A DNA stretch of 64,000 bases from IMG/VR virus record IMGVR_UViG_3300006226_001721, positions 10,314 through 74,313 of that record; one strand, written 5' to 3'. Source of the DNA: a virus. This document shows positions 36,293-63,949 of the stretch, one piece after another; the first letter of the stretch is position 1; each line of letters starts with the position of its first letter. The position numbers were made by a program, and so were the translations under genes. Under the pieces are notes generated by a model. It was not told the origin of the DNA. It ran no database searches and saw nothing but the letters and a program-made list of their open reading frames with translations.

Positions 36293-37705
36293 TTATACAG
36301 TCAATCCAACTGCGTGGTTGACAAGTTTCTTCTTATCTGTTGTTCCATCCAACTGCATATTGAAAGCTACATCCAACCGTTTCTTAAAGTCCGGGCCAGG
36401 TTTCAACCCCTCAGCTATCAAATGAACTCCAGTCACTATTGGCTCTGGCAGTACTTGACCAAACTGTTTCACCAAGTCAGTCACACACTTATCAAAGTCT
36501 ATCATATCTTTCGTATTAGGTACACCATTCGATGCAGCAGTTCCCAAAGTATCACAAGCAGACAAGTTGAACAGTAAGTGAAAGTCTTTGCTTCCCAACA
36601 GTCGCCGTATCTTATGTACTTTCTTCATTTTCGGCAAATCATGAGCATTCATGTGCCGGCGAACTAAAGAAGCAACTCGATCAACTATCTCAGAAGGGAA
36701 CCGCATCCTCACTAGTATCTCTCTAGTCAGATCAGCACCAACTGTATCGTGATTTAGAAAGCGGCTACTACCATCAGTTTTCTTCTCACGGCAAAAAGGC
36801 TTTCCAATATCATGCAACAAAGCGGCCAACATTAGAACCAACTTCTCATTGTCATCTGCCAACGGAGCATCGAACTTACCAACTTGTCCACCACAAACTA
36901 CATCATTTGCTGCTTGAAATACGAACATAACATGGGCTAATATCGTATTGCCGAAAGGCTTCATTGTCTCAGTGTGCCAAGAGTTGTTGTGTGCCTCGTG
37001 CAGTCTTGCGGTCTCAGGAATTAGCATCTGCATTATGTTCAACTCAAACATGAGCTTAACTGTTTCAAATGCAGAAGGACCAATTAGCAACTTACTCAGC
37101 TCAGCAGTGATCCGCTCCTGACTCACACCAGAAAAGCTGCAGCCATTTAGCACGAACTTCTCAATGGCCTTCATTGCTGCCTTGTCTAAAGTGAAGCTCA
37201 GTTGACTCATGAAGCGAAAAGCACGTAAGATCCGCAACTTGTCTTCGGTGATTCTGTCTATTGGGTTACCAACAAAACAGATCTCCTTATCATGAATGTC
37301 AAGAGTTCCAGCAAATGGATCTCTCATTATCTCCTTAATAGGATCCCAAGCCATCGCATTCATTGTGAAGTCGCGCCGTGCTAAATCTATCTCAATGTCA
37401 CGGACAATCTCTATACCATCCGGCCTGCGACCATTTCCGCCAATATCTTTTCTATACTGGGCGATCTCATAAGGAATGCCATTCACAACAACGGCTGTTA
37501 TTCCAAAAGCCTCACCAATTTCTAACACCTGAAAATCTGCAAAGATGCGCTTAATGTCAGCAGGTGATGCATTGCTTGTCAAGTCAATATCGTGAGGTTC
37601 TTTACCCATTTGAAAGTCTCTGACTGCTCCACCTACTACATAGCACTCAAAGCCATTAGAGTTCAGACGGCTAGCAATCAGATTAACGTTTGCATTTTTC
37701 TTCAT
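36293..37705 (-). CDS. cca: CCA-adding tRNA nucleotidyltransferase with HD domain
   Basis: VGGAVRD, DIDL, DLARRDFTMNAMA, EDKLRILRAFRF, ERITAEL, HDIGKP. Confidence 0.88.
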   Translation of the reverse strand: MKKNANVNLIASRLNSNGFECYVVGGAVRDFQMGKEPHDIDLTSNASPADIKRIFADFQVLEIGEAFGITAVVVNGIPYEIAQYRKDIGGNGRRPDGIEIVRDIEIDLARRDFTMNAMAWDPIKEIMRDPFAGTLDIHDKEICFVGNPIDRITEDKLRILRAFRFMSQLSFTLDKAAMKAIEKFVLNGCSFSGVSQERITAELSKLLIGPSAFETVKLMFELNIMQMLIPETARLHEAHNNSWHTETMKPFGNTILAHVMFVFQAANDVVCGGQVGKFDAPLADDNEKLVLMLAALLHDIGKPFCREKKTDGSSRFLNHDTVGADLTREILVRMRFPSEIVDRVASLVRRHMNAHDLPKMKKVHKIRRLLGSKDFHLLFNLSACDTLGTAASNGVPNTKDMIDFDKCVTDLVKQFGQVLPEPIVTGVHLIAEGLKPGPDFKKRLDVAFNMQLDGTTDKKKLVNHAVGLTV

Positions 37706-51879: not shown

Positions 51880-51881
51880 AC

Positions 51882-52208
51882 TAGATTCTCAAAAAATTAT
51901 TTTAATTAACCAGATTAAATTTTATAAGTATAACTTGCTGTTAGAATCTAAAAACAAGACGCTCTATAAGATAGCCGAAGCTATTTGTAAGTGTCGAAAC
52001 TTACTAAATTTCATTAAAAATTAAAATTATTACCAGATTGTATAATTTGCTGTAAGCGTCTTAAAATCTCCTTTTTATAATAACACGATACGTCTTTGCT
52101 TCAAAATTCCAAGTATTTTTGCTTTAAGTTTTGCTGTATGTACCGTAAACTAAAATTCTAAAATCACGATGCATTTTTAACCATTGTAATAAATGCTGTT
52201 AGCACCGT
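51882..52208 (-). ncRNA. Tandem array of four stem-loop RNAs carrying ACAGCA
   Basis: Units 52166-52208, 52085-52146, 51956-52062, 51882-51950; each has a 7-8 bp closing stem immediately followed by WWACAGCA. Confidence 0.7.
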
Positions 52209-52262
52209 CTATCTATATAACGTTCAGAGCCGGTAAGGGAGGTGAACAACCAGCTCTTACTT

Positions 52263-52281
52263 GTTATTTAGTTATATTAAC
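52263..52281 (-). promoter_or_regulatory. Compound promoter GTTAATATAACTAAATAAC upstream of the RNA array
   Basis: Identical 19-mer at 53798-53816 upstream of the DUF2828 gene. Confidence 0.7.
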
Positions 52282-53777
52282 ACGATTGGTTTGTACCTTT
52301 CGCTATTTAATATCTCCAATAAGGCTTGATATGGATCAAGAGTTCCACTCATCACCATTTTGATTAAGTTGATGCTAAAGCCGCTCACTAAAGCTACTCC
52401 GCATTCGTTTTCTACAACAGGAATTGCTCCAGTTCTACTGTTCACATTCCAAAAGATCAAACGTGGAAGTTTGTAACCTAAGTTAGCATACTCGTTTGCT
52501 ATGTGTTGAAAAAGCTTGACATCAGTTCGACCAGTACAAGCATCGAATTCCATATCTGAAATGATCAAAACGTTCTTAATCATTTCTTCTTGTGTCATTT
52601 TAGCTTTTGCAGCTGTTCTTAATATCAACTCAAACACGGCTTGTATGTTAGTATTAGCAACTTCATTATGTTCGAGTGCTATCAACATTTTACCTAAGAG
52701 TGACTGAGCGCTTGAAAAGTTGATCATTTGTGGTCGTTCACTGAAAGTAATGTACTTATCTTTGAAGTCACCAACATTGTGTTCGGCACAGTAGATAGCC
52801 AACGCATTAGCTATTTCTAAAGCCTGAGCTGAAGTGCCTGGAATTGTTGTCATCATTGATCCACTTCCATCTGCAACGACTAAAGTGTCTCGCAAACCAT
52901 ATTCTGGCAATGCTTTCCACATAGCTTCAATAGCTGGATCAACCTTATTATGAGTGATCTTTCGTGACCATGGATCCATCTTACAACCATATTGATGCAC
53001 TATATCGTGTGGAAATGCTACTGATGCATTGATCTTAGCTTCACCCTTTTCAAGCTTACCAAGATACTCACGTCGTCTTTCTTCATCATTCTTTAAGAAC
53101 GCGTTACGATACTTTAAGTTTGCCATTGATGGTACATGTTCATAATTGATAGCGCCCCACTTTTTGGCGGCCGCTTTGACTTCAATAACGTCAAGATAGG
53201 CTCTTAATGATGAAAGCATCTTACGATAATCACGTTCTTTCATACTCAAAGCCATTGCTAACTTACGAGCCATTTTACGAACACCAGCTGAACTAGTGTT
53301 GACGCTTGGCATCCATTTAGCACAAAGTGATGCTGGCTTTCCAGCCTTCATTGCGATAACGTCATCATTTAGCTGCTTAGATAAGATAGCCACAACTTCT
53401 TCTTGAGCTGAGTCGAACGCGATAAGTAAGTCATCCCACCGACCATATTCTGGTACCAACTTCAAAAGTGGCTTAACGCGAACATCTAACGTAATAAGTC
53501 GTTGCAAGATTGTACGGAACAAATCTCTCTCACCTAAGCCCTCTCTAACGTCTCTGACGAAGAAAAGCCACTTAACTGCTAATTCTGCATTTTCTGAGTA
53601 AGCTTTAGTAAAGTCTTGTATGATTGTTTGTTGTGAAGCGCCTCTGTAAGAAGCAACTTTGAAGTTCATGTCTAAAAGAGCACGACCTGTTGATACGTGG
53701 ACACGAGCACCATTTTCTGTATAAGCATCTCGTGATATTTCACTCTGCACGAGTTCTTTTTCGATAGCATTAATCAT
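52272..53777 (-). CDS. DUF2828-family vWA/TROVE-like protein
   Basis: VRDVREGLGER, VPEYGRWDDL, AKWMPS, DGSGSM (MIDAS), TFS, IISDMEFD, FWNV, SGFS. Confidence 0.8.
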   Translation of the reverse strand: MINAIEKELVQSEISRDAYTENGARVHVSTGRALLDMNFKVASYRGASQQTIIQDFTKAYSENAELAVKWLFFVRDVREGLGERDLFRTILQRLITLDVRVKPLLKLVPEYGRWDDLLIAFDSAQEEVVAILSKQLNDDVIAMKAGKPASLCAKWMPSVNTSSAGVRKMARKLAMALSMKERDYRKMLSSLRAYLDVIEVKAAAKKWGAINYEHVPSMANLKYRNAFLKNDEERRREYLGKLEKGEAKINASVAFPHDIVHQYGCKMDPWSRKITHNKVDPAIEAMWKALPEYGLRDTLVVADGSGSMMTTIPGTSAQALEIANALAIYCAEHNVGDFKDKYITFSERPQMINFSSAQSLLGKMLIALEHNEVANTNIQAVFELILRTAAKAKMTQEEMIKNVLIISDMEFDACTGRTDVKLFQHIANEYANLGYKLPRLIFWNVNSRTGAIPVVENECGVALVSGFSINLIKMVMSGTLDPYQALLEILNSERYKPIVLI

Positions 53778-53816: not shown

Positions 53817-53829
53817 ATAAACTGAAAAA

Positions 53830-54725: not shown

Positions 54726-54878
54726 AATAAATAGTAACGGATGGGAACAACCGCCCTTCACTCGATCGATTGAATGGGTCCGTCAACTCCATAAGACAGT
54801 TTGCTATGATTGTCTCCTAACACAGAACGTAACGTGTTCATCTACGTCACAGTCTACTACTATAGTCTCGACTGTTAG

Positions 54879-54951
54879 TCAGAACGGCTGGATTTGAACC
54901 AGCGACATCTTGGCTCCAGACCAAGCAGGCTCCCAACTGCCCTACGCTCTG
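54879..54951 (-). tRNA. tRNA-Pro(TGG)
   Basis: Cloverleaf, C1-G72, A73; loop TC-TGG-AG. Confidence 0.85.
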
Positions 54952-54962
54952 ATACGGGTGAT

Positions 54963-55124
54963 ATGGATAGGAAATGGATTGGACCACTCATCTTTTACAC
55001 ATAGTATGATTACTCCTGTTTTCGTCATACTGTCTACTATTCTCTTAACTAGTATGGGTGAGAAATACGTAGAACCCTCTTTGCACTCCTGCTAGTGTAA
55101 CTGTTTTCTTTAAACTACTATCCA
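54963..55124 (-). ncRNA. tRNA scaffold with a 96-nt insert replacing the anticodon loop
   Basis: Acceptor TGGATAG/CTATCCA, D stem GTTT/AAAC, anticodon stem TTACA/TGTAA, degenerate T arm. Confidence 0.6.
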
Positions 55125-55130
55125 AGCTAT

Positions 55131-55288
55131 TCGACAAGGTAGAGTTACGAACTCTCATTTTCTGCAAAGGTGTTCAACATCAGCGTCGACTATGCCAACG
55201 TTGAATGAAGGGCTTATCAGTGTCCGGATTGTTGCCCACACTCATCTCTCTCCGATATTGCAGCTGTTTTTCATTAAACTACAAGTCG
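55131..55288 (-). ncRNA. tRNA scaffold with a 90-nt insert replacing the anticodon loop
   Basis: Acceptor CGACTTG/CTTGTCG (two U-U), D arm nearly identical to its neighbour, stem CTGCAA/TTGCAG, T loop TTCGTAA. Confidence 0.55.
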
Positions 55289-55405
55289 TTAAAATGTGGG
55301 CTTTCCACCCACTCTGGGATTCCACCAGTTGGCTCATTACTAGTTCACCTCACCTGTTAACTCAGGGACTCTCGAAAGAGCGGAGTTTAGTGAACATCGC
55401 AAGAT

Positions 55406-55478
55406 TGGACCTGACGCGATTCGAACGCGCATTTCACTCCTTGCAAAAGAGGACGATAGCCTTTATCGTAACAAGCCC
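55406..55478 (-). tRNA. tRNA-Ala(TGC); an alternative register would read GCA
   Basis: G3.U70 and A73 Ala determinants; loop TT-TGC-AA. Confidence 0.7.
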
Positions 55479-55483
55479 AAAAG

Positions 55484-55681
55484 CAGGAACTGTCTAAGGC
55501 GACACTAGACGAACAGCTCCTATTGTACGCATCCTCACCAGGCCTTACGTAAGTATGTAGTCGCAAAGTGTGGATCTAAGATCTTTATTGAACGACTATA
55601 TCCTCGGCCATACTAAACCGGACCTGGTAACTTTAGTCCAGGCTACATAACAGATACTAAACTCCCTAGGGTTTTTCTGCT
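55484..55681 (-). ncRNA. Unassigned structured RNA between tRNA-Gly and tRNA-Ala
   Basis: AGCAG/CTGCT closing helix, CCTGG/CCAGG, TAGTCG/CGACTA, GGAGCTGT/ACAGTTCC. Confidence 0.45.
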
Positions 55682-55766: not shown

Positions 55767-55848
55767 CACCGGTCCGCGGGCTTAGCACCCACGGTCCGGC
55801 GTCTTAAACTATTTTGACGTACATAGTTCATGACGCTATGCAACCGGT
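55767..55848 (-). ncRNA. Degenerate tRNA-like element
   Basis: ACCGGT/ACCGGT acceptor, ATAG/CTAT D stem, extended T stem CCGTGGG/CCCGCGG, 12-nt anticodon loop. Confidence 0.4.
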
Positions 55849-55849
55849 T

Positions 55850-56515
55850 TCTATCCCGTCGGATCTTTTCCAGGATAACCTTCAACCTGCTGGCTGCCAA
55901 ACTATGGGCATTTAAAGCGGTACCTCTACCAGAATTTCTACTAATTTGAAGCTGCAGCAATTACCCGCACTTATGACCTTTTGAGTCCACTTCTTATTTC
56001 CACCACTTAGTATGCCGCAATTCGGCGGGTGCGGCTCACATTCACTTTTAGACCAACGAACGTGAAAGTCATGGATATACAGACGAACGACCATCTGCTG
56101 TTAGTCCTTCTGCCCTCCGGCGAACCAACTCCCAAACTGACGTCTCTACTCGTCCAACATTTGGGTATTTTCTACTAACAATAAAGTTCAAGGCTTAACC
56201 GATTCGCGGTACCACCTTTTACTTCACTATCAATAACGGTCAATAAAAGCCGCGCTTACTTAATATACCGCCAACGCGTGGGTCACGGTCAGGATTACAC
56301 TTCCGTCATATCTTGGTGGTCCAGCGACCTGTTGGTAACTCTACACCTAATGTCACATCCTAATAAGTTCTACCAAGTGGCTCGTACCAATAGAGCTCTT
56401 CTTGCAGCCGTAAGCTTGAATTAAGTCCCTGATCCAGATACTCACCACCTCCAGCGGCCTGTTGGCAACTCTCAGCTTGTTATATCCGCTAGCAGGAGCG
56501 GCTCTCGGTTTCCCT
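55850..56515 (-). ncRNA. Candidate large structured ncRNA (or cluster of them)
   Basis: No credible ORF, GC-richer, starts at the early promoter, 22-nt repeat at 56321-56342 and 56451-56472. Confidence 0.4.
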
Positions 56516-57017: not shown

Positions 57018-57138
57018 TCCGCCAGACAGGGTTTGCACCTGTACGATGGTCTAGCCATCAGCAGGCTATACTCACCAGCCCTCCGGCCTTAAGGTTACAT
57101 ATAGTTCCCGCCGCGTCTCCTATTTTCGCCACTGACGA
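57018..57138 (-). ncRNA. tRNA-Leu-type scaffold with a 41-nt anticodon loop
   Basis: Leu-type D arm TGGCGAAAATAGGAGACGC, stem GCGGG/CCTGC, long variable arm, T arm ACAGG-TGCAAAC-CCTGT, A73. Confidence 0.65.
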
Positions 57139-60857: not shown

Positions 60858-60872
60858 CTTAAAACTCCTAAA

Positions 60873-60945
60873 TGCGCGAGGGTGGACTTGAACCACCAAC
60901 CTTTACCTTATAAGAGTACTGCTCTCACCATTGAGCTACTCACGC
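60873..60945 (-). tRNA. tRNA-Ile(TAT)
   Basis: Cloverleaf; loop CT-TAT-AA; A73. Confidence 0.85.
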
Positions 60946-60949
60946 ATGT

Positions 60950-62772: not shown

Positions 62773-62888
62773 GGCAATATGGTAGGATTTGAACCTACGA
62801 CCACTGGATTAACATTCCTGATAGTAATTGCGGTAAAAGCCGTTACACGGCTCACTTTTAAGCGCTCTACCACTGAGCTACATATTGC
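62773..62888 (-). ncRNA. tRNA-like RNA (GTT, Asn-type anticodon arm) with a 42-nt insert after position 26
   Basis: 8-bp acceptor GCAATATG/CATATTGC, canonical D and T arms, CAGGA-ATGTTAA-TCCAG arm, insert 62821-62862. Confidence 0.6.
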
Positions 62889-62891
62889 TTC

Positions 62892-62962
62892 TGAGCCCGG
62901 GTGGAATCGAACCACCATAACAAGATTAAAAGTCTTGGGTACTACCATTGTACTACGAGCCC
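62892..62962 (-). tRNA. tRNA-Lys(TTT)
   Basis: Cloverleaf; loop CT-TTT-AA. Confidence 0.92.
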
Positions 62963-62965
62963 ATT

Positions 62966-63153
62966 TAACGACTATAAGCAGGGTTCTGTTAGTCGACTAT
63001 CATCTGTCTATTTGCCCGCTACCTTGCATCATAGGAGAATCCATATCCTAGCTAACTTGCGGTTGCATCCTGAAGTGGTGATAACGCTAAATGCTCCCAC
63101 TACTGATTCTGATGCCCTGACTTTCCTCTCCGCAGAGCGATAGTCCGTCGTTA
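62966..63153 (-). ncRNA. rnpB: Minimal RNase P RNA (catalytic domain only)
   Basis: GAGGAAAGTCAGGGC and AACAGAACCCTGCTTAT (P4), P1 TAACGAC/GTCGTTA, P2 GACTATC/GATAGTC, P5 CATC/GATG, P15 CCGC/GCGG. Confidence 0.85.
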
Positions 63154-63560: not shown

Positions 63561-63563
63561 ATA

Positions 63564-63949
63564 TGGAGATGGCGGGATTCGCACCCGCGTCCAAAATACA
63601 GTCAATATAACTGAATACTTACAAGGTTAGCTGAATGTTCTGCGACCTAACCGAGACATCTAAATTCAGCATGTCGTGTCTCCAGTTGCACCTTCCGTTT
63701 CATCTTAACGATAAGCCCGTTAGGACTAACTAACCGTCCAGGTTGTAGGTGTCGCCCTATCCTTCATACAACCATTTGAAGGAGGACGGGTTATGCAGCT
63801 CGTGCAAATGCTACAGCAGTTCTGTTAGAACGACCGTAGTTGTAACCTGTTGAATAATCGTTGCCAATTATCGTGTGAGCTTTTAGAGTGCCCTAACTAC
63901 ATTCCTTGTCAATTATACCACTATTATCCTGTCGAATCTATTCATCCCC
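63564..63949 (-). ncRNA. ssrA: tmRNA
   Basis: 5' GGGGATGAATAGATTCGAC, 3' GCGAATCCCGCCATCTCCA, G3.U70; tag ORF 63791-63865 (A)GNDYSTGYNYGRSNRTAVAFARAA*. Confidence 0.92.

Follow-up and report, generated by a model that had tools for sequence, protein, structure and literature searches.

Two adjacent elements in the tRNA array of a large gut phage, here called A and B, are paralogous and share a loose cloverleaf whose anticodon loop is interrupted. The interpretation that we tentatively favour is that they are non-decoding, tRNA-shaped stable RNAs which would be cut out of a tRNA operon; the position, spacing and strand of A and B inside the array support it. The window, that is the whole stretch of 64,000 nt that was analysed, is part of a 94-kb IMG/VR record (G000) estimated by CheckV to be about 29% complete. 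A 174-kb contig and three gut-type metagenome assemblies also contain this phage, and the region of A and B is 100% identical by blastn across all these copies.

Layout of the elements within the tRNA array

On the minus strand of the window, 24 tRNA genes and a tmRNA form an array, which runs from about 53.8 kb to past the window end and has homing-endonuclease-like ORFs scattered through it. A and B, together with one spacer, occupy an interval of 453 nt between two tRNA genes, as listed below.

36293-37705: phage-encoded gene for a CCA-adding enzyme
52272-53777, minus strand: gene for a predicted Ro60-like protein (TROVE ring plus vWA), assigned to DUF2828+DUF7788 by Pfam and to PHROG 850
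54878-54951, minus strand: tRNA-Pro(UGG), 12 nt downstream of B
55405-55479, minus strand: tRNA-Ala(UGC), flanking A on the upstream side
55289-55404, minus strand: spacer between tRNA-Ala and A, 116 nt
63561-63949: tmRNA, the sole tmRNA match in the window
55288 to 55131, minus strand: element A, 158 nt
55288-55282 (5' strand) with 55138-55132 (3' strand), minus strand: acceptor of A, 5 of 7 positions paired
55279-55266, minus strand: D arm of A; spacer AG at 55265-55264
55263-55259 with 55166-55162, minus strand: anticodon-type stem of A
55168-55252, minus strand: insert of A, 85 nt, between positions 37 and 38
55156-55140, minus strand: T-like arm of A, GAGAG-UUCGUAA-CUCUA
55139 and 55131, minus strand: extra C and discriminator A of element A
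55124 to 54963, minus strand: element B, 162 nt
55124-55118 with 54970-54964, minus strand: acceptor of B, 7 of 7 positions paired
55115-55103, minus strand: D arm of B; spacer AG at 55102-55101
55100-55096 with 54999-54995, minus strand: anticodon-type stem of B
55001-55089, minus strand: insert of B, 89 nt, between positions 37 and 38
54989-54972, minus strand: T-like arm of B, GAGUGG-UCCAAU-CCAUUU, with two G.U pairs
54971 and 54963, minus strand: extra C and discriminator U of element B

An earlier sequence-only reading had placed two adjacent elements of about 160 nt here, with an acceptor, a D arm, an anticodon stem and a T-like arm in each. This layout was confirmed, coordinates included: both elements lie on the minus strand, the four helices are present in both, and the two D-arm strings that had been quoted occur exactly twice in the window against none expected. 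Only 7 nt separate A from B and 12 nt separate B from tRNA-Pro, so that the pair is spaced like tRNA genes. UA at positions 8-9 and an identical GUUU/AAAC D stem are common to A and B, and the D loops, of 5-6 nt, have a single G (AAUGAA and AAAGA). In both elements two extra nucleotides stand between the D arm and the anticodon stem and one C between the T stem and the acceptor, and the variable region is of 4 nt. The anticodon stem consists of a G.A mismatch and then 6 bp, the 5-bp anticodon-type stem being lengthened by a 32:38 pair, and it encloses about 99-103 nt. The acceptor of A (CGACUUG/CUUGUCG) has a tandem U.U, with two U.U mismatches, and the T loops read UUCGUAA in A and UCCAAU in B. 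The two G.U pairs in the T stem of B would be A.C on the other strand, which points to the minus strand as the functional, folding strand; the minimum-free-energy fold of B is the cloverleaf. Protein coding was rejected, as no ORF of at least 50 aa is found on the minus strand at A and B and B has nothing that corresponds to a 21-codon ORF in A.

How tRNA-like the elements are depends on the tool. Rfam gave no family match over 54963-55288 at E<=10, RF00005 included, and ARAGORN made no call on intact A or B, either with introns allowed (-i300) or at the 90% threshold (-ps90). When the insert is taken out, A is called only at the 80% threshold (-ps80), as "Asp" with anticodon AUC, and B only in metazoan-mitochondrial mode, as "Ala" with anticodon AGC, these relaxed and mitochondrial modes being noisy (9 and 19 calls, respectively, in 53 kb of coding sequence); none of 500 shuffles of either spliced scaffold gave an ARAGORN call. 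A covariance model seeded with B (R1) recovers A with 31.2 bits (E about 1e-4), and its next-best match is tRNA-Ile(UAU) of the same array (60872-60946, 22 bits), which is the closest scaffold relative of B and has the G27.A43 mismatch in common with it. These matches and the common mismatch indicate that A and B are tRNA-derived, and the likeness of the B scaffold to tRNA-Ile(UAU) fits an origin by tRNA duplication. The description of the pair as tRNA scaffolds thus holds for the descent and for the four helices, but the scaffolds are degenerate and are missed by tRNA finders and by Rfam. tmRNA identity, of which the hallmarks are G3:U70, a tag reading frame, pseudoknots and a match to RF00023, was rejected, because the sole tmRNA match lies at 63561-63949 and A has A3:U70 and B has G3:C70.

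Other elements were noted in and near the array. In the spacer between tRNA-Ala and A, at about 55296-55316 (minus strand), there is a hairpin resembling a T arm (GUGGG-UGGAAAG-CCCAC, with UUUU after it), which the repeat family D12 aligns with the T arm of a tRNA-Ser and which could be a weak terminator or what is left of a tRNA; a second such hairpin without an accompanying tRNA (ACCGUGGGUGCUAAGCC) is at 55779-55795 on the minus strand, and both probably remain from tRNA genes that have been lost. Directly after tRNA-Trp, at 57018-57138 (minus strand), a Leu-type (class II) tRNA scaffold has a good T arm, a long variable arm and a GCGGG/CCUGC stem enclosing 41 nt. Between tRNA-Phe and tRNA-Lys, 192 nt at 62962-63153 (minus strand) match the bacterial RNase P class A model over its full length with 58 bits (E 5e-16), where the gathering score is 100; the phage may have an RNase P RNA here in strongly reduced form. 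An ORF-free element of 141 nt (56373-56513, minus strand) has counterparts in related phages (L034 6578-6718, L040 13134-13274) with 93.6% identity between phages whose Ro60-like proteins share only 61%; it has no Rfam match and its fold z-score is +0.3. Just upstream of tRNA-Ala, an element of 97 nt (55553-55648, minus strand; L034 8144-8239, 86% identity) contains a class-II-like D-arm string, GGCCGAGG, and displays compensatory changes from GAUC/GAUC to GGUC/GACC. In a 329-kb relative, FliG- and FliM-like genes adjoin the tRNA array (L037/L038 1-2038).

Conservation of the body, of the inserts and of the pair

The cloverleaf of A and B is supported by the alignment of the two elements, in which 93.5% of cells are paired as against 41-52% in slid-partner controls. 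Eight of the 23 pairs are changed on both sides and still paired (the acceptor and the anticodon stem have three each, the T stem two), a count that 0 of 500 shuffles reach; 12 stem pairs differ between A and B, and 9 of them are paired in both (binomial estimate of P ~0.01 under random change). The comparison comprises two sequences only, in an alignment fitted to the structure, and part of the covariation could stem from an origin of A and B in two different tRNAs. The eight doubly compensated pairs indicate that cloverleaf pairing has been kept under selection since A and B diverged. Moreover, the odd features that they have in common, namely the short D loop, the AG spacer, the extra C and the insert site, imply that an already aberrant ancestor preceded the compensatory changes.

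The scaffolds of A and B are 63% identical and their inserts align over the first ~25 nt only (UA.C.GGAG.G...GAG.GU), the remainder being unrelated; this difference suggests that selection has acted on the body rather than on the insert. That the anticodon loops are interrupted was borne out, with inserts of 85 and 89 nt placed exactly at 37/38 where 90-96 nt had been proposed, and when they are removed, both elements are left with a loop of 7 nt that has U33 and, at 37, a purine. The A insert has a strong 12-bp hairpin (UUCAACGUUGGC/GCUGAUGUUGAA), and the 21-codon ORF, which is not conserved, stands behind GGAGAGAG; in the B insert, CAGGAGU occurs twice and a 7-bp hairpin closes a loop of 15 nt which starts with CGAA. 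The view of the inserts as structured domains was not supported: they fold no better than shuffled sequence (z-scores of -0.78 for A and 0.0 for B), and the whole elements reach -0.8 and -1.0. Since the inserts are not thermodynamically distinctive, the idea of natural tRNA-scaffolded aptamers loses support. No repeat or antisense target of the inserts exceeding 12 nt was found in the 94-kb record. A search for a homologue of RegB, with possible cleavage at the conserved GGAG in mind, gave no match, and control genomes likewise gave none. Self-cleaving ribozymes (hammerhead, twister and others) were rejected, with no Rfam match at E<=10.

The nearest relatives, chosen by the adjacent protein (~60% identity), are L034/L040 (G001), L037/L038 and L046. 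Their tRNA arrays are syntenic with that of the window and have other non-tRNA elements in common with it at 86-94% identity, and there is nothing at the position of A and B in L034/L040, L037/L038 or L046. A blastn search with the A/B region against L034, L037, L040 and L044-L046 matched only the identical phage (L031, L033), and R1 had no match in the relatives or in the whole 198-kb G001 record. The exact D-arm pattern had 29 matches in IMG/VR, all of them due to chance as judged by blastn, two motif-pair patterns had 0 matches in JGI metagenomes, and an IMG/VR search for related loci with the DUF2828 protein found no close relative. The absence of A and B from the relatives and from the IMG/VR and JGI scans marks the pair as lineage-specific, seen so far in one phage only. 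A homologue comparison had been suggested as a check on insert variability; neither the nearest relatives nor IMG/VR nor the JGI metagenomes yielded a homologue of A or B. Lack of stem conservation in related phages had been named as a mark of decayed pseudo-tRNAs; the elements are absent from every related phage reached, but the stems of A and B are compensated with respect to each other, which argues against simple decay.

Possible nature and role of the pair

If A and B are non-decoding stable RNAs, they would be transcribed within a polycistronic tRNA operon; a phage promoter-like TGTTAATATA motif is present at about 57007 and its next copy at 53817. They would be released like the neighbouring tRNAs, by RNase P at the 5' end, 3' trimming and the phage CCA-adding enzyme, because an acceptor stem stacked on the T-like arm has been retained and their spacing is that of tRNA genes; the extra nucleotide between T stem and acceptor and the degenerate D and T loops may impair recognition by RNase P or by the CCA enzyme. 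The released RNAs would then hold or titrate a protein which binds the tRNA body; the long arm on the anticodon side would vary as an appendage, perhaps a dispensable one. The first choice for such a partner would be the Ro60-like protein, whose gene is 1.2 kb away on the same strand, because bacterial and phage Ro60 proteins use nearby tRNA-mimicking Y RNAs; alternatively, the partner could be a tRNA-targeting defence enzyme of the host. Against the Ro60 partnership, A and B are missing from syntenic relatives that have the Ro60-like gene (~60% identity); a partner on which the protein depends would be expected to occur together with it.

A bolder form of this proposal, which we consider quite improbable, is that the minimal tRNA body would serve as a scaffold for processing and stability (RNase P, 3' trimming, CCA addition) and display a fast-evolving arm of ~90 nt, and that this arm would recruit the Ro60-like protein or trap a host defence enzyme directed against tRNA, making the pair a new RNA class. 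If true, the pair would parallel in nature the engineered tRNA scaffold and would amount to a Y RNA in tRNA order (5'-D-arm-T-3'). Y RNAs illustrate that tRNA mimicry can serve Ro60-type RNA surveillance, and A and B adjoin a Ro60-like gene, a CCA-adding enzyme, a tmRNA and the reduced RNase P-like RNA, so that they offer a test case for the use of the tRNA shape beyond decoding by large phages. The weight of the case is limited by its being a pair in a single lineage with decay as a rival.

Decay is indeed the main rival of the stable-RNA interpretation, and we hold it to be rather unlikely. A and B would be pseudo-tRNAs, that is duplicates of a tRNA like tRNA-Ile(UAU), inactivated by insertion into the anticodon loop and now drifting without function. 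Much of what has been described above agrees with this: the absence of A and B from all relatives reached, the degenerate D and T loops and extra spacer nucleotides, the two U.U mismatches plus the G.A mismatch of A, the rejection of the pair by tRNA finders and Rfam, and the lack of insert structure beyond chance. Furthermore, the array holds other tRNA debris (~55296-55316 and 55779-55795), and its homing endonuclease genes suggest rapid turnover. What speaks against drift is the pairing retained at most of the differing stem positions, with eight pairs changed on both sides, and a scaffold that is far better conserved than the insert.

The Ro60-like neighbour was examined by its predicted structure. 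The AlphaFold model of the protein encoded at 52272-53777, built with a 40-sequence alignment, has a pLDDT of 80.7 (a single-sequence model of the DUF2828 protein, with a pLDDT of 40, was unusable), and its top 13 PDB matches are all Ro60/TROVE structures, from Thermus phage phiLo, Xenopus, human and Deinococcus, with E values of 2e-8 to 1e-5 and TM scores of ~0.5. By predicted fold, the DUF2828+DUF7788 family, which counts 711 phage records, is therefore Ro60/TROVE-like over its full length; at the sequence level the protein has a marginal match to Pfam vWA_Ro60 (E 0.13), and PHROG 850 is annotated as "RNA-binding protein".

It is thus conceivable, and in our judgement distinctly unlikely, that A and B are Y-RNA-like partners of this DUF2828 protein, with the body and the arm tethering the ring to a nuclease of the host such as PNPase. 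YrlA Y RNAs mimic tRNA, and their genes are no more than 4 kb from Ro60 and share its strand (PMC4201824), and Thermus phage phiLo has two Y-like RNAs (Yrl1 and Yrl2) upstream of its Ro60 (PMC12135203). A and B, which also are tandem and tRNA-like, are located 1.2-1.5 kb from a gene whose protein model matches Ro60 at full length, which lies downstream of them on the same strand and hence inside the 4 kb. As to motifs, CGAA opens the hairpin loop of B and CUGCAAU stands directly after the D hairpin in A, B being without it; short motifs such as CGAA are expected by chance. The YrlA covariance model (RF02553) has only a weak match elsewhere (62864-62917, E 0.83) and none on A or B, neither A (GUCGAAUAG) nor B (GACGAAAAC) matches the motif GNCGAAN0-1G, their topology is the reverse of that of YrlA, and relatives with the same protein are without the pair. 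A circularly permuted YrlA-like reading across the A/B junction was also rejected, because the sequence from the A T arm to the B D arm cannot form an acceptor hairpin.

Other RNAs are also found next to DUF2828 genes. In two unrelated phages, tRNA-shaped genes with anticodon-side inserts of 24-76 nt are located directly upstream of the DUF2828 gene:

L044 9683-9804: insert-bearing tRNA-shaped gene
L045 9618-9736: insert-bearing tRNA-shaped gene
L045 9744-9881: insert-bearing tRNA-shaped gene

Their inserts consist of a hairpin and then an ACWGCAAU module (AAACUGCAAU), which the CUGCAAU of A resembles and which recurs in stem-loop units just downstream of the DUF2828 gene of the window. No such arrangement was observed when Vibrio phage nt-1, Klebsiella phage KP2025 and Enterococcus phage VRE9_3 were examined, so the link between insert-bearing tRNA-like genes and DUF2828 is not universal. 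In a "Val-like" tRNA-shaped RNA of 114 nt (62774-62887, minus strand), the acceptor, D arm and T arm are canonical, and the two arms are separated by an additional hairpin and an A(A)CYGCAAU module. Conservation of this RNA extends over several phage families, the acceptor showing compensatory changes, its family including G001:C1:174889-175007 and the genes at L044 9683-9804 and L045 9618-9736, both directly upstream of DUF2828. Directly downstream of the Ro60-like gene, at about 51880-52240 (minus strand), there are four stem-closed ACAGCA units, each starting with UAACAGCA/UACAGCAA, preceded by a repeat of a phage promoter-like TGTTAATATAAC motif and with a terminator hairpin as the last feature; similar units flank the DUF2828 genes in L044 and L045. 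The ACAGCA units and the Val-like family are better-conserved candidate partners of the Ro60-like protein than A and B, which weighs against a Y-RNA role of the pair.

Finally, A and B could be intron-containing tRNA genes from which inserts of 85-89 nt are excised at 37/38 by a protein-dependent or self-splicing route, which we consider very improbable. The loop left by excision is of the right size and composition in both elements, a conserved body with a fast-evolving insert is an intron-like pattern, and an Rnl2-type RNA ligase is present in one relative (G001 only). A group I core comprises P3-P9 and a G-binding site and usually exceeds 200 nt; the earlier view that the inserts are too short for it was borne out, with no group I, group II or ribozyme signal in Rfam at E<=10. 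A bulge-helix-bulge, with two 3-nt bulges at the splice sites and a 4-bp helix between them, had likewise been judged not to be present, and manual threading of both elements in every register agrees: in B, CUAG faces CUAU with 3 of 4 pairs and leaves a 1-nt bulge, and in A there is no complement to AUAU. Splicing endonuclease (PF01974) and RtcB (PF01139) are absent in the partial records G000 (29%) and G001 (60% complete). The spliced anticodons AUC and AGC, both with A34, would be redundant with Asp-GUC and Ala-UGC of the array, B is without the Ala identity pair G3:U70, and the tRNAs missing from the array (Met, Cys, Gln) are not derivable from A or B. In addition, positions 32:38 would be Watson-Crick pairs and the elbows are degenerate. 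With such A34 duplicates, 32:38 pairs and elbows, a new class of tRNA intron is the weakest of the three roles proposed by the sequence-only reading, the others being scaffolded aptamers or sRNAs and nuclease decoys; none of the three was demonstrated.

Comparison with known RNAs

Canonical tRNAs, and especially tRNA-Ile(UAU), resemble A and B in the cloverleaf helices, in U8, A14, A21 and G53:C61 and in the G27.A43 mismatch. A and B differ from them in having neither a 7-nt anticodon loop nor G18G19, in their aberrant T loops, which do not give a T-Psi-C-R-A elbow, in the spacer nucleotides at two junctions and in the missing match to RF00005. With intron-containing tRNAs they have in common the placement of the insert at the canonical 37/38 position.

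Y RNAs often occur two per locus. The likeness of A and B to YrlA and to Yrl1/Yrl2 consists in tRNA-like elements being encoded near a Ro60-family gene, on the same strand and two per locus. In YrlA, however, the 5' and 3' ends form the Ro-binding stem, the tRNA-like domain is internal and its acceptor is a closed hairpin, whereas the ends of A and B form the acceptor. Unlike the Ro60 of YrlA systems, the neighbouring protein of A and B falls into DUF2828/DUF7788, and its sequence does not place it in Pfam TROVE.

Small stable RNAs of phage tRNA clusters, such as RNA C and RNA D of T4, have been known since the 1970s. These two are the closest analogue of A and B, being tandem, a few nucleotides apart, oriented like the tRNAs and placed within the tRNA cluster, and A and B are likewise tandem non-tRNA genes with tRNA-like ends in a phage tRNA cluster. 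In T4, rnaD (119 nt) and rnaC (139 nt) lie in tandem at the end of the tRNA cluster, and their role is unknown (PMC3014915; PMC9697503). R1 finds no homology in the T4 tRNA region (best match 9.1 bits, E 0.22). The expression of RNA C and RNA D is proven, A and B being predicted RNAs. T4 rnaC has a canonical T arm, and its acceptor (CGAUUCG/CGUUUCG) contains two U.U mismatches, as does that of A; it has no recognisable D arm or anticodon stem, whereas A and B keep all four helices and, unlike rnaC, have their extra sequence strictly inside the anticodon loop.
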